Below, piece by piece: positions 7,462-11,417 of a DNA stretch of 64,000 bases. The position numbers and the translations under genes were made by a program. Numbering within the stretch: position 1 is the first letter of the stretch; the number at the start of each line of letters is the position of its first letter. Source of the DNA: an uncultured Chloroflexia bacterium. Lineage in GTDB: Bacteria; Chloroflexota; Limnocylindria; Limnocylindrales; CSP1-4. Under the pieces are notes generated by a model that saw nothing but the letters and a program-made list of their open reading frames with translations, did no database searches and was not told where the DNA came from. The stretch is taken from NCBI GenBank assembly GCA_963813535.1, contig CAWEZH010000002.1:1920001-1984000 (forward strand), written 5' to 3'.

Positions 7462-7963
7462 GATCGTCTCCCGCGTTCGACGGGTCGTCCATCACCGACG
7501 CGGTCATACGCGAGCGCCACTCGGCGAGGCGCGCCGCGAGCCCCTCGTCGGCGAGGGCCAGGATCGACGCGGCCAGAAGCCCTGCGTTGACGGCGTTCCC
7601 GATCGCCACGGTCGCGACCGGGATCCCGCGGGGCATCTGGACGATCGACAGCAATGAGTCCATCCCACCCAGGTGCTGGGTGGGGATCGGCACACCGATG
7701 ACCGGCAGCGTCGTCTTGGCCGCGAGCATGCCGGGCAGGTGCGCCGCCCCACCAGCCCCGGCGATGATCACCCGGATCCCGCGACCGGCGGCCTCCTCGG
7801 CATAGCGGAAGAGATGGTCCGGTGTCCGGTGCGCGGAGACGACCCGGAGCTCCGCCGGCACGCCGAGCGCGCGAAGGGTCTCGACCGCCTCCTCGAGCAC
7901 GGGAAAATCCGATCGGCTCCCACCGACCACACCGACCACGGGGCTCGGCGCGTCGGCGCTCAC
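7451..7963 (-). CDS. purE: N5-carboxyaminoimidazole ribonucleotide mutase
   Basis: [37 protein letters not shown]. Confidence 0.97.
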
Positions 7964-9687
7964 GGCGGCCCATCTCGTTGCTCGTCGGTGTCGCCGTCCT
8001 CCCAGCGGAGGAGCTCGATCGCGGCGCGGGCGCGAGCCAGCGCCTCCTCGCTCGATGGTCCGATGACGGTCACGTGACCCATCTTGCGGCGCTCGAAGAC
8101 CTGCCGCTTGTCGTACAGGTGCAGGTGCACGGCCGGGTCCGCCATGGCGCGTGCCAGCCCGAGCGGTTCGAGGCGAGCCGGGCGGGCCGGACCCGTGCCG
8201 AGGAGGTTGACCATCGCGGTCGGGGCGAGCGCCTCGGTCGAGCCGAGGTCGAGGCCGCAGACCGCCCGGACGTGCTGTTCGAACTGCGACGTCACGGCAC
8301 CTTCGATCGTCCAGTGCCCGCTGTTGTGGACGCGCGGCGCGAGCTCGTTGGCCACGAGCCGCTGGTCGGGCATCAGGAAGAGCTCGACGGTGAGCATCCC
8401 GGTCACGCCCATCATCACCGCTAGCCGCTCCCCGATCGAAGCGGCACGTTCGGCGACCTCCGGATCGACCGCGGCGGGCGCCACGCTCTCGACGAGGATG
8501 CCTGCGTCATGCCGGTTGCAGGCGAGCGGGTAGGTCGCGATGCTACCGACCGAGCTGCGCGCGACGACGATCGACAGTTCAGCCTGGAACGCGAGCTCGG
8601 CCTCTGCCAGCAACACCTCCCCGGCGGGACGCCCCAGCCGGTCGAGGGCATCGTCGAGCTCGCGGTGGTCACCGACCCGCACCTGGCCCCGACCGTCGTA
8701 GCCGCCGGTCGCCACCTTGATCCGCATCGGCAGCCCGATCGCATCGGCGGCGGCGTGCAGGTCCTCGGTCGTCCGGATCTCGCGCCAGGGAGCCACGGCG
8801 ACCCCGGCCGTCTCGAGGAACCGACGCTCCGCGATCCGGTCCTGGGTCACGTGCAGCGGCAACCGGCCGGGACGGACAGATCGCACCGCGTCGACCGCGT
8901 CGACGACCTCGGTCGCGATGTGTTCGAGCTCATACGTCACGACGTCGCTCCACCCGGCCAGGCGGAGCGCCCCACCGACATCGTCATAGCCGGAAACGAC
9001 GACCCGATCGGCGATGCTGACCGCCGGACTGTCAGGATCCGGATCGAGGACGGCGACCCTGTAGCCCATCGTCCGGGCCGCCATGCCGATCATCCGCCCG
9101 AGCTGGCCACCGCCGAGGATGCCGATCGTGGCCGGCGGCACGACGGGCGGACGCTCGACGCCGATGCGGCGATGGACCTCGGAGATCCACGCCTGCTTGC
9201 GGTACGTGTACTGGTGCGGCTCGATCGGGCCGTCGGACACGATGCCGGTCTTGAGCTCCGCGTAGCCCTCGACGAGGGTGGGATCGGCAAGCAGCGCGTC
9301 GCGGAACGCCACGTCGCGTTGGAGCTCCTCGGTGTCGGGCAGGACGTGGCAATGGATGCGGAACGTCGTGCCGCCACGGACGAGGGAGCCCACCAGCATC
9401 GGCCGGCTCGGTGGCCATGGATCGGGACCTGGCTGCGGTCCGAACCCCAGCTCCCGGAGCATCGCCGCGACAGCCGGGACGTCCTCGGGAGTGGTCGCGA
9501 TCGCGAGATCCACGATGCCCTTGCCGGGCAATCCGGGGACGGCCGTGCTGCCGATGTGCTCGACCACCAGGTCCGGACGGCGCTCGCCGATGAGCTCGGT
9601 GACGGCGCCCGCGACCTCGATCGTCCGAGGATCCCACGGCTCGACCGTCGCGGGCAGTCGGACGTACGGCCCGATCGGCGGGTTCAC
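7960..9687 (-). CDS. purK: N5-CAIR synthetase PurK fused to an N-terminal GrpB/UPF0157 nucleotidyltransferase-fold domain
   Basis: N-terminal [18 protein letters not shown]...FRDAL...YAELK...K (GrpB), then [36 protein letters not shown] (PurK). Start GTG 9687 with TACACT + 6 nt. Confidence 0.9.
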
Positions 9688-9711
9688 CGGGGGAGTGTAG
9701 ACTGCGCCCCC
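9688..9711. promoter_or_regulatory. Overlapping divergent -10 elements (leaderless promoters)
   Basis: TACACT on - strand (9699-9694) 6 nt before GTG 9687; TAGACT on + strand (9698-9703) 8 nt before ATG 9712. Confidence 0.6.
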
Positions 9712-10344
9712 ATGCGACACGTCATCGGCCGACACGCCCTCGAGGTGGACGTCGGATAAGTCACCGAACTGATCGCCCGGGCCGACCGGGTGATCGTGGA
9801 TCTCGGCACGGGCGACGGCCGTGCCGTGATCGCTCGCGCGACAGGGGACTCTCGCGCGCTGGTCATCGGCATCGACGCCGCGGCGGCATCGATGGCCGAG
9901 TCGTCGCGCCGTGCCGACCGGCGCGGACCGCACAACGCCCTCTTCCTGGCGGCCCGCGCAGCTGCGCTCGACGCGACACCGCTCGCGGGCCAGGCCGACG
10001 TCGTGACCGTCACGTTCCCCTGGGGCTCGCTGCTCCGCGGCGTGCTCGGTCGTGACGAGGCGTCGCTCCGTGGCATCGCGTCGATCGTCCGACCCGGCGG
10101 TCGCGTCGAGGTGCTGGCGTCGGTCGTGCCGGCCGATCGGGTGGACGGCATCGACTGCCTCGACACATCGATCCGTCCGGCGCTGACGGACGCTTGGCTG
10201 GCCGCCGGACTCCGGCTCATCGATCTGCGGCCTGCCACGTCTACCGAGGTCGCGGCGACGGGCTCGACCTGGGCGCGGCGGCTCGGCGCCGGGCGGCCCG
10301 TGTGGCGGCTGACAGGTGTCCGCTCGGCTAGCATCGAGCCATGA
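9712..10344 (+). CDS. KamB/NpmA-like 16S rRNA (adenine1408-N1)-methyltransferase with in-frame TAA at codon 16 (readthrough, truncated or pseudogene)
   Basis: MRHVIGRHALEVDVG*VTELIARADRVIVDLGTGDG...GIDA...FPWGSLLRGVLG...AAGL...STWARRL matches the recalled KamB/NpmA layout. The ORF track starts it at GTG 9790. Confidence 0.8.
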
Positions 10345-11417
10345 GCGGACACGCTGCCACCACGCCGCTGATCCTCGATGTCGACACGGGCATCGACGAC
10401 AGCCTCGCGCTGCTCTACGCGGTCGCGTCCCCGGAGGCCGAGATCGTCGCGGTGACGTGCGTGTCCGGCAACGTCGAGGCGCGGCAGGTCGCGACGAATA
10501 CCCTCGCCGTGCTCGAGCTGGCCGGTCGCACCGACATCGACGTGGCCGTCGGGCGCGAGATCCCTCTCGTACGGGCGCTCGAGACGACGCCCGAGACGCA
10601 CGGCCCGGCGGGCATCGGCTACGGGGAGCTGCCAACACCGCGGCGCCCGGTCGGCGACCGTCACGGCGTCGACGTGATCGTCGATGCCGCTCGCGCTCGG
10701 CCCGGTGAGATCACCCTGGTCACCCTCGGCCCGCTGACCAACCTCGCGGTCGCACTGGAGCGCGAACCCGCCCTGCCGCGCCTGCTGCGACGGCACGTGC
10801 TGATGGGCGGCGCGTTCGGTGCTCCCGGCAATACGACCCCGACCACCGAGTGGAACGTCCATTGCGATCCGGAAGCGGCGCGGATCGCCTTCCGGGCCTG
10901 GGGCGAGGCCATCGCCGCGGACCCGTCGGTGCCACGACCGCTCGCTCTCGGCCTCGACGTCACCGAGCAGGCGCGGATCGGGCCCGAGCACGTGGTCGCC
11001 CTCGCCCGCCGCGCCGGCAGCACGCCCGACGATTCGCTGGGCACGCCCGCCGACGACCCGCTCGCGCCGGCTCGCTCGGTCGCGTCGAACGCGATCATCC
11101 GGTTCGTCGCCGACGCCCTGCGCTTCTACTTCGAGTTCCATGAACGCTATGACGGCTTCTACGGGGCGTTCATCCACGACCCGCTGGCGGTCGCCGCGGC
11201 CCTCGACCCGCGGCTCGTCACCACCGAGGCGCTCTACGTCGACGTGGAGACGAGCGGCGAGCTGACGACCGGCATGACCGTCGCCGACCGTCGGCGGCTC
11301 ACCGGGAAGCCACCGAATCTCGACGTGGCAGCGACTGCCGACGTCGAAACGTTCCTCGATCGCATGATCGAGCGGGTGGGCAGCCTTGCCGCCGATCGGG
11401 CCGGCGTCCCGACGTAG
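10341..11417 (+). CDS. Inosine/uridine-preferring nucleoside hydrolase
   Basis: DVDTGIDD, HGPAGIG, LGPLTNLA, EWNVHCDPEAA, HDPLAV. TAGCAT + 6 nt before the ATG. Confidence 0.93.
   Translation: MSGHAATTPLILDVDTGIDDSLALLYAVASPEAEIVAVTCVSGNVEARQVATNTLAVLELAGRTDIDVAVGREIPLVRALETTPETHGPAGIGYGELPTPRRPVGDRHGVDVIVDAARARPGEITLVTLGPLTNLAVALEREPALPRLLRRHVLMGGAFGAPGNTTPTTEWNVHCDPEAARIAFRAWGEAIAADPSVPRPLALGLDVTEQARIGPEHVVALARRAGSTPDDSLGTPADDPLAPARSVASNAIIRFVADALRFYFEFHERYDGFYGAFIHDPLAVAAALDPRLVTTEALYVDVETSGELTTGMTVADRRRLTGKPPNLDVAATADVETFLDRMIERVGSLAADRAGVPT

Follow-up and report, generated by a model that had tools for sequence, protein, structure and literature searches.

The window analyzed here is a 64,000-nucleotide (nt) stretch of contig CAWEZH010000002.1 from an uncultured bacterium of the phylum Chloroflexota (class Limnocylindria in the GTDB lineage), and the question that it raises concerns a predicted 16S rRNA methyltransferase gene of the KamB/NpmA type that is interrupted by an in-frame stop at its 16th codon: is this a broken or misread gene, or does the stop belong to the way in which the enzyme is made? 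Inspection of the sequence and of its open reading frames (ORFs) shows the frame opening with ATG 9712, running for 15 codons (MRHVIGRHALEVDVG) to TAA 9757-9759 and, past the TAA and without any change of frame, reading on as VTELIARADRVIVDLGTGDG... to TGA 10342-10344, just as the first-pass annotation of this DNA described it. That annotation proposed that aminoglycoside-bound ribosomes read through the stop, and it kept a simple lesion or a base-call error as the alternative. The stop turns out to recur at the same codon in nearly all related loci of the class and of Nocardia, with an intact frame behind it, so both the lesion and the base-call error can be set aside.

The methyltransferase frame and its codon-16 stop

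Translated through the stop, the gene gives a product of 210 residues (with the stop read as X) that matches the Pfam family NpmA (PF24675) over residues 3-195, corresponding to positions 2-203 of the 214 positions of the profile (E 1.9e-42; 145.4 bits, with a cut-off of 60). The best NCBIfam model is that of WarA (NF051863; E 7.4e-50, 169.3 bits), with a score below the equivalog cut-off of 305, and by these matches the window gene is a relative within the WarA clade and not WarA by NCBI's rule. The gapless alignment to the N-terminus of KamB, which the first-pass annotation had proposed, is borne out against the solved KamB structure (3mq2), which aligns without gaps from residue 1 and places a Glu opposite the stop. 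In an alignment of 38 sequences (A3), residues D30, G32, G34, D35, G36, W104, W187 and R190 of the read-through product are invariant, and the Trp and Arg positions of the window protein align to the Trp and Arg of the β6-β7 loop of KamB that were reported as critical for that enzyme (PMC2995053). An AlphaFold2 model of the read-through protein, built from the 38-row alignment, has a mean predicted local distance difference test score (pLDDT) of 95.1 and a predicted template modeling score (pTM) of 0.92, and contains two N-terminal strands (residues 2-5 and 8-11, with pLDDT of 96-98), a loop that holds the stop (residues 12-17), a helix (residues 18-23) and strand β1 from residue 26 onwards. 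A Foldseek search with this model placed m1A1408 (N1-methyladenosine 1408) enzymes, and no others, at ranks 1-19, with KamB in first place (TM-score 0.88, root mean square deviation 2.0) and NpmA among the others (TM-score 0.90). The predicted product is a full-length m1A1408 16S rRNA methyltransferase that resembles KamB and belongs to the WarA clade, with a single fold to which the sequences before and after the stop both contribute.

The first-pass annotation asked whether homologs carry a stop or a sense codon near codon 16, and within the class nearly all carry a stop. A Pfam search detected the PF24675 family in 122 of 401 genomes of the class, in 31 of its 65 genera, and nearly all of the near-full-length matches list one TAA or TAG; across 61 related genomes, exactly one in-frame TAA or TAG lies within a strong match in 20 of the 37 genomes of the same genus, the window genome (G000) included. 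For comparison we collected 120 class loci, 30 of them through the related genomes, 30 through the Pfam search and 60 retrieved in addition (matches in six unpublished genomes and most partial matches were left out), from which six weak paralogs (L023-L028), two duplicates (L030, L035) and three degraded or unalignable copies (L015, L022, L103) were excluded. The stop stands at exactly codon 16 in 106 of the remaining 109 loci, as TAA in 79, as TAG in 26 and as TGA in a single one (L053 of the unpublished genome G141, omitted from later alignments); the other three, L034, L051 and L075, have a sense codon there (for Gly, Arg or Trp). This choice of stop departs widely from the norm of the genome, in which TGA terminates 68%, TAG 29% and TAA 2.8% of the 1,703 frames with sense-strand composition: the codon that is rarest genome-wide dominates at this site, and the most common one is almost never used. 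Motif I follows the stop at a distance of 16 codons in 104 loci and of 15 codons in the other two, and no indel breaks the frame. Three loci have two in-frame stops, at codons 16 and 18 (L168, TGA GTC TAG; L187, TAG GGC TGA; L235, TGA TTC TGA), with the ORF and the catalytic motif intact and with at least one TGA in each pair.

The stop-bearing form is also found beyond the class. In the rest of the phylum, 22 of the 25 genomes that have the gene lack an internal stop, and the starts of their genes are led by a Shine-Dalgarno sequence. A scan of genome records found the same architecture as in the window in cultured Nocardia amikacinitolerans, N. transvalensis, N. pseudobrasiliensis, N. xishanensis and further Nocardia strains, and also in metagenome-assembled genomes labeled as Actinomycetota, Thermoleophilaceae, Dehalococcoidia and others; among 267 Nocardia species genomes, 18 carry the gene and 17 of these 18 have TAA at codon 16. 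In a FastTree phylogeny of 148 sequences, of which only the topology is considered, the stop-bearing genes form one clade as against 17 stop-free outgroup genes, and both the three sense-codon members and the Nocardia genes are nested inside that clade, which points to a single origin of the stop followed by long retention, transfer between phyla and rare reversion. Judging by this conservation, the codon-16 stop is a selected feature. Five loci labeled as Saccharimonadales, Anaerolineaceae, Dormibacterota or Binatia (L160, L163, L177, L211, L218) have a promoter and a leader nearly identical to those of Limnocylindria-type loci, and their labels look like binning or labeling noise or like recent transfer.

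The notion that the TAA is a GAA/CAA>TAA lesion, a mark of a pseudogene or a sequencing error retains a practically negligible probability. It could draw on the visible decay of some relatives, in which the leader is off-frame or the ORF is truncated past the stop (L015 of genome G007, L022/L030 of G024, L140/L141 of G712 and G733, and L107; in L142, with TAG TTC TGA at codons 16-18, the ORF is likewise truncated), and these copies indicate that the gene is sometimes lost. Against it stand the recurrence of a stop at the same codon in the class and in Nocardia, the ORF past the stop, which is intact in all but one of 106 loci and spans from 180 to over 214 codons, and the invariance of the catalytic residues. 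The inspection of sequence data at position 9757 that the first-pass annotation called for disclosed no disagreement with TAA: contigs from X1, X2 and X20, independent soil or permafrost runs that belong to three studies, cover the triplet without difference (X20, guessed to be an RNA run, yielded contigs of a relative only). The alternative of lesion or base-call error is accordingly rejected.

Sequence features before and after the stop

The start of the gene is marked by a promoter-like element and not by a ribosome-binding site. In 116 of 121 loci, the start codon is preceded by a TAnnnT hexamer whose end lies 6-9 nt away, compared with a background of 0.1% at random positions of coding sequences, and a Shine-Dalgarno core at the start is present in only 8 of the 121; a scan for strict E. 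coli-type sigma-70 promoters and terminators gave no sites. The spacing of the hexamer and the missing Shine-Dalgarno sequence suggest that the mRNA is leaderless, with its 5' end on the A of the ATG or directly beside it. The 15 codons that follow have the consensus M-R-x-V-x-G-[RK]-R-x-x-[ED]-V-D-V-G. Their third positions are the most variable (entropy 0.67, 0.54 and 1.12 at the three codon positions), and the ratio of nonsynonymous to synonymous differences (pN/pS) is 0.59, compared with 0.55 in the enzyme core (the all-pairs estimates are saturated, with pS of 0.43-0.59, and the ratios are descriptive only); both features argue that codons 1-15 are translated and bear out the coding constraint on them for which the first-pass annotation had proposed to look. 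The end of this leader is conserved beyond its amino acid sequence: all 106 class loci have exactly GACGTC at codons 13-14, six bases without a single change, and the counterpart of this sequence varies in Nocardia (GACATC, GATATC, GACGTT). Two further ideas were dropped. For ribosome hopping from the Gly codon, inspection shows GGA, GGC, GGG, GGT or AGC at that codon and no matching landing codon downstream; for pairing of GACGUC with 16S rRNA near positions 1404-1407, or mimicry of helix 44, the geometry appears implausible. A protein search with residues 1-40 returned five candidates, none of which scored.

Past the stop, the frame stays open. None of the 106 loci has an in-frame stop in codons 17-30, compared with 77 loci that have one in frame +1 and 9 that have one in frame +2; when the nucleotides of these codons are shuffled, a stop arises in 24 loci on average and in no fewer than 13 (500 shuffles; the sequences are related, so that no probability is attached). 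When scored with a matrix derived from 17 stop-free outgroup proteins, residues 17-26 beat 1,997 of 2,000 column permutations. In 35 of the 106 class loci and in 6 of 17 Nocardia loci (41 of 123 altogether), the stretch from the stop to motif I lacks any in-frame ATG, GTG or TTG; the record named N. amikacinitolerans is one of these Nocardia loci. GTG 9790, the possible start codon to which the first-pass annotation had drawn attention, is therefore not a start that these genes could universally use, and only 2 of 120 loci have a Shine-Dalgarno core in front of codon 27.

The hairpin reported by the first-pass annotation was recovered as described, with 11 pairs, two of them G-U, over positions 9770-9796 and with GTG 9790, which lacks a Shine-Dalgarno sequence, in its 3' arm. 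Its free energy is -20.6 kcal/mol, and only 0.19% of the 21,323 windows of 32 nt in the 64 kb are as stable; the wider region of 131 nt around it is unexceptional (z -1.84). Across the loci, codons 17-32 are more structured than the protein requires, given that the native sequences fold with a free energy of -20.7, compared with -16.9 in synonymous recodings (mean z -1.14), with z below -1 in 58% of 122 loci and with a mean z near 0 in three control regions taken from the same genes. The covariation that was expected of the hairpin is there in one respect and missing in another. In a gapless alignment of 119 sequences, the helix pairs in the register of the window in 67.7% of the cells, compared with 35-39% when the partner is slid by one or two columns and 56-59% when it is slid by three, and cells changed on both sides of the helix number 156, compared with 77 in shuffles, none of the 500 shuffles reaching 156; RNAalifold, applied family by family, did not recover the hairpin. 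A scan for the best hairpin is noisy in sequence of 70% GC. A smaller hairpin with the stop in its loop (GUCGG-loop-CCGAC/CUGAC) was considered and rejected, being present in family f4 and absent in the window genus and in TAG-type loci. Structure past the stop is also present in the loci without a restart codon, which means that hiding a start codon cannot be its sole role. As for alternative folds switched by a ribosome on the leader, a single hairpin is what we saw, and no dedicated search for alternatives was made; a ribosome terminating at codon 16 would come to stand against this hairpin, which starts 10 nt further on, without opening it.

Readthrough, re-initiation and other explanations

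How, then, would an enzyme be obtained from this frame? On balance, we lean toward the view that the codon-16 stop is read through. Aminoglycosides promote nonsense suppression and hinder the action of release factors. Under the mechanism that we propose, most ribosomes would terminate at codon 16 and release a 15-residue peptide, and the enzyme would come only from those in which a near-cognate tRNA decodes the stop and elongation carries on in the same frame; for the residue inserted at the stop, the likeliest candidates are Gln, Glu, Lys and Tyr, and Glu is what stop-free relatives mostly have at position 16. The Asp-Val-Gly codons and the RNA structure from about 10 nt past the stop would be parts of the signal. 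As the enzyme modifies the decoding center, its synthesis would be made dependent on decoding fidelity: unmethylated ribosomes that carry an aminoglycoside would terminate poorly and misread, so that more enzyme would be made, and methylated ribosomes would shut its synthesis down. Indirect support for such a loop comes from a report that KamB increases the accuracy of translation in E. coli (PMC12406665). That programmed readthrough couples the synthesis of the enzyme to decoding fidelity in this manner, plausibly through aminoglycoside-bound ribosomes, is a substantial possibility, which we put forward tentatively on the strength of sequence comparison. In its widest form, the proposal would describe a protein-free, nonsense-codon sensor of aminoglycosides in the WarA clade, in which drug-bound ribosomes on a leaderless mRNA misread a tight UAA, the enzyme methylates A1408 and expels the drug, and restored termination turns the gene off. 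Such a sensor would have arisen once, would have passed between Chloroflexota, Actinomycetota and further phyla, would be at work in Nocardia of clinical relevance and would have been hidden by annotations that start past the stop; taken as a whole, this extended version is doubtful. A suppressor tRNA or a reassigned stop was considered and rejected: among the 51 tRNAs of the window genome none has a tta or cta anticodon, and RF1 and RF2 are both encoded, so the stop appears to be an ordinary one in this organism. The tRNA set of this genome also includes tRNA-SeC(tca), an unusual tRNA-Ile with the anticodon tat, and two predictions of unusual length, Arg-acg (84 nt) and Glu-ctc (88 nt). In the literature searched, we found no description of an in-frame stop, of readthrough or of leader control in this family; the original WarA report may bear on the point.

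Several observations weigh against readthrough, and most of them favor its main rival, in which codons 1-15 would be a leaderless leader peptide and a shortened enzyme would be made from GTG 9790 or GTG 9796, by re-initiation or upon opening of the hairpin, in a manner resembling erm-type attenuation or the leaderless short-ORF attenuators known in mycobacteria (10.1101/834739, PMC4633059). GTG 9790 is part of the hairpin's 3' arm, GTG is found at stop+11 in 46 and at stop+13 in 28 of the 106 loci, and at codon 27 it is modestly enriched, with 56 of 102 Val codons (55%) compared with a background of 37%. The database proteins found for the clade (P0002-P0121) all start past the stop, at assorted GTG, ATG or TTG codons, with lengths of 180-222 aa, and the NCBIfam model of WarA itself begins at product residue 27, that is, at GTG 9790. 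In codons 17-26, pN/pS is about 1.08 and there is no excess of variation at third positions (entropy 1.31, 1.13 and 1.23), which suggests that the constraint on the protein right after the stop is weak or else is masked by constraint on the RNA; the N-terminal β-hairpin of KamB was judged not critical, the R8A mutant being equal to the wild type (PMC2995053). The failure of RNAalifold to find a common helix of more than 4-6 pairs in any family is a further point against a conserved readthrough signal, and we attribute it to shifts of the helix register between clades. Nevertheless, we consider re-initiation unlikely as the explanation, even if it is the alternative that deserves most attention. 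It would have to do without a canonical in-frame start in a third of the loci and almost always without a Shine-Dalgarno sequence before codon 27; it would leave the supposedly untranslated spacer free of in-frame stops in 106 of 106 loci where about 24 with a stop are expected, and free of frame-breaking indels; and it offers no account of the structure past the stop in loci that have no start codon to hide. Furthermore, according to the structural model, a product started at codon 27 would begin inside β1 and lack the N-terminal helix, a helix that was reported to pack on the sheet (PMC3061052), and the lasting homology of the leader to the KamB N-terminus, with which it is in frame, would go unexplained.

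The remaining objections are directed at the involvement of the drug. According to one report, amikacin raised stop readthrough in E. coli reporters only about 2-fold, TAA was the least responsive stop in E. coli fidelity mutants and UAA is the tightest stop in the bacteria studied (PMC10959953), although a preference for the tightest stop does fit a switch whose default state is off. WarA is described as giving N. wallacei high intrinsic resistance (PMC13493296, PMC11836654), which would be unexpected from rare readthrough unless there is induction or efficient recoding. Readthrough could, alternatively, be constitutive, with the stop acting as a throttle that holds a costly enzyme at a fixed and very low level, or as a homeostat that responds to the methylation state alone, and with the drug playing no role. 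The anatomical evidence is the same for this version as for fidelity-coupled readthrough, the small effect of aminoglycosides in E. coli speaks for it, fitness costs of these enzymes are documented, as is the effect of KamB on accuracy (PMC12406665), and the three intact double-stop loci look as if leakiness were tuned. All the same, a throttle appears improbable to us, considering that a weak promoter or start codon would do the same job more simply, that the stop and its flanking signals are kept across two phyla, which suggests a conditional function, and that the Nocardia carriers are described as highly resistant. A different kind of recoding at Asp-Val-Gly-stop can also be imagined, such as a StopGo-like event in which the 15-mer is released and elongation resumes at codon 17, giving an enzyme that begins with residue 17. 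The invariant Asp-Val-Gly before the stop, the open frame that begins directly behind it and needs no restart codon, and the location of the stop in a loop between two structural elements of the model would all suit such an event; the ribosome would, however, be left without an acyl donor after release of the peptide, and we know of no such mechanism in bacteria, which makes this a very improbable explanation. Readthrough at codon 16 stays the reading that we prefer as the most economical one, with a single gene, a single frame and an enzyme that would be made only upon decoding of the stop.

Genomic context, implications and known systems

The features of the locus are collected in the table. 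The ATGA overlap between the methyltransferase gene and the nucleoside hydrolase gene behind it (10341-10344) suggests translational coupling, in which case the hydrolase might also depend on ribosomes that have passed codon 16. On the other side, the divergent frame contains a GrpB domain (residues 24-173) and a complete PurK (preATP-grasp, ATP-grasp and PurK_C) and represents either a gene fusion or the loss of a stop between two genes. The two divergent genes have back-to-back, overlapping -10-like hexamers, TACACT on the minus strand (9699 to 9694, 6 nt before GTG 9687) and TAGACT on the plus strand (9698-9703), and both genes look leaderless.

Table. Features of the methyltransferase locus, in positions of the window
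Feature	Position	Strand	Basis or remark
-10-like hexamer TAGACT, 8 nt upstream of ATG 9712	9698-9703	+	TAnnnT conserved in relatives
Whole putatively recoded gene	9712-10344	+	210 codons including the internal TAA; terminal TGA 10342-10344
Codons 1-15 (MRHVIGRHALEVDVG)	9712-9756	+	homologous to the N-terminal β-hairpin of KamB/NpmA
GAC GTC GGA (Asp-Val-Gly), abutting the stop	9748-9756	+	conservation across class loci
In-frame TAA, codon 16	9757-9759	+	sequence; conservation in the class and in Nocardia; independent contigs
Codons 17-26 (VTELIARADR), separating the stop from the first potential restart	9760-9789	+	N-terminal helix of the Kam fold
Hairpin, 11 pairs (2 G-U), 5-nt loop, starting 10 nt past the stop	9770-9796	+	folding, pairing statistics
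GTG, codon 27, within the hairpin's 3' arm; potential or annotated restart	9790-9792	+	no Shine-Dalgarno sequence
Second GTG	9796-9798	+	possible restart codon
Motif I, D-L-G-T-G-D-G (S-adenosylmethionine-binding loop)	9799-9819	+	D30, G32, G34, D35 and G36 invariant in A3
Inosine-uridine nucleoside hydrolase gene	10341-11417	+	ATG overlaps the methyltransferase TGA (ATGA)
Divergent GrpB-PurK fused ORF	7960-9687	-	GTG start 9687, 24 nt from ATG 9712

If readthrough is indeed what happens here, the gene would count among the few examples in bacteria of UAA or UAG readthrough that is both programmed and conserved and, as far as the literature searched shows, would be the first resistance gene to be switched by the miscoding and poor termination that the drug itself causes. 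The finding makes it testable how the costly genes for A1408 and G1405 methyltransferases stay silent until they are needed. It also has a bearing on annotation, in that gene callers, NCBIfam and the catalogs of resistance genes appear to describe the clade by an N-terminally truncated product, and pipelines in which internal stops are flagged would probably classify such genes as pseudogenes. Yet it is precisely the stop-bearing form that is carried by Nocardia species of the amikacin-resistant group, and inducible expression could make the outcome of susceptibility tests depend on the time of exposure.

Among known systems, the closest is WarA, which is said to be the m1A1408 methyltransferase of Nocardia wallacei described by Hershko et al. 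in 2024. The Nocardia genes fall in the same stop-bearing clade as the window gene, with a leaderless start, TAA at codon 16 and a leader, M-R-I-V-x-G-K-K...D-[VI]-G, that the Nocardia/WarA group and the window type have in common. WarA, for which methylation of A1408 and resistance in N. wallacei are reported (PMC13493296, PMC11836654), differs in being modeled and annotated as a protein of about 190 residues that begins past the stop, and the texts consulted do not mention an in-frame stop. KamB and NpmA share with the window protein the Pfam family, the fold (TM-scores of 0.88-0.90), motif I and the critical Trp and Arg, and differ in that position 16 is encoded by a sense codon (for Glu in KamB). 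The stop-free homologs from the same phylum, for their part, differ in their Shine-Dalgarno-led starts and in lacking the Asp-Val-Gly motif.

With respect to regulation, the natural comparison is erm attenuation, in which a drug-stalled ribosome sits within a separate leader ORF and the enzyme has its own Shine-Dalgarno sequence and start codon. The switch proposed here would resemble it as a resistance rRNA methyltransferase induced via a drug-affected ribosome, with a short 5' ORF, a hairpin and no regulator protein; unlike in erm, the leader and the enzyme share one frame that a stop interrupts, and a second start is missing from many loci. Programmed readthrough with 3' structure is familiar from the retroviral gag-pol pseudoknot, the A1 protein of phage Q-beta and the bacterial selenocysteine insertion sequence (SECIS). 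The locus in the window is like these systems in its in-frame stop, in what looks like coding sequence on both sides and in RNA structure about 8-11 nt downstream. To our knowledge, the bacterial cases of readthrough use UGA and not UAA or UAG, and the locus differs from them further in that no dedicated tRNA or factor was seen here and that the register of the helix varies between clades. In prfB, an in-frame UGA is rescued by a +1 frameshift that senses RF2; there, too, an early in-frame stop in a gene for the translation apparatus ties synthesis to the reading of that stop, whereas in the gene described here the frame is unchanged. Finally, the leaderless short-ORF attenuators of mycobacteria, members of Actinomycetota, likewise have a leaderless mRNA that opens with a short ORF; that ORF is unrelated to the downstream protein, which has starts of its own (10.1101/834739), whereas in the methyltransferase genes of the WarA clade the short ORF is the N-terminus of the enzyme.

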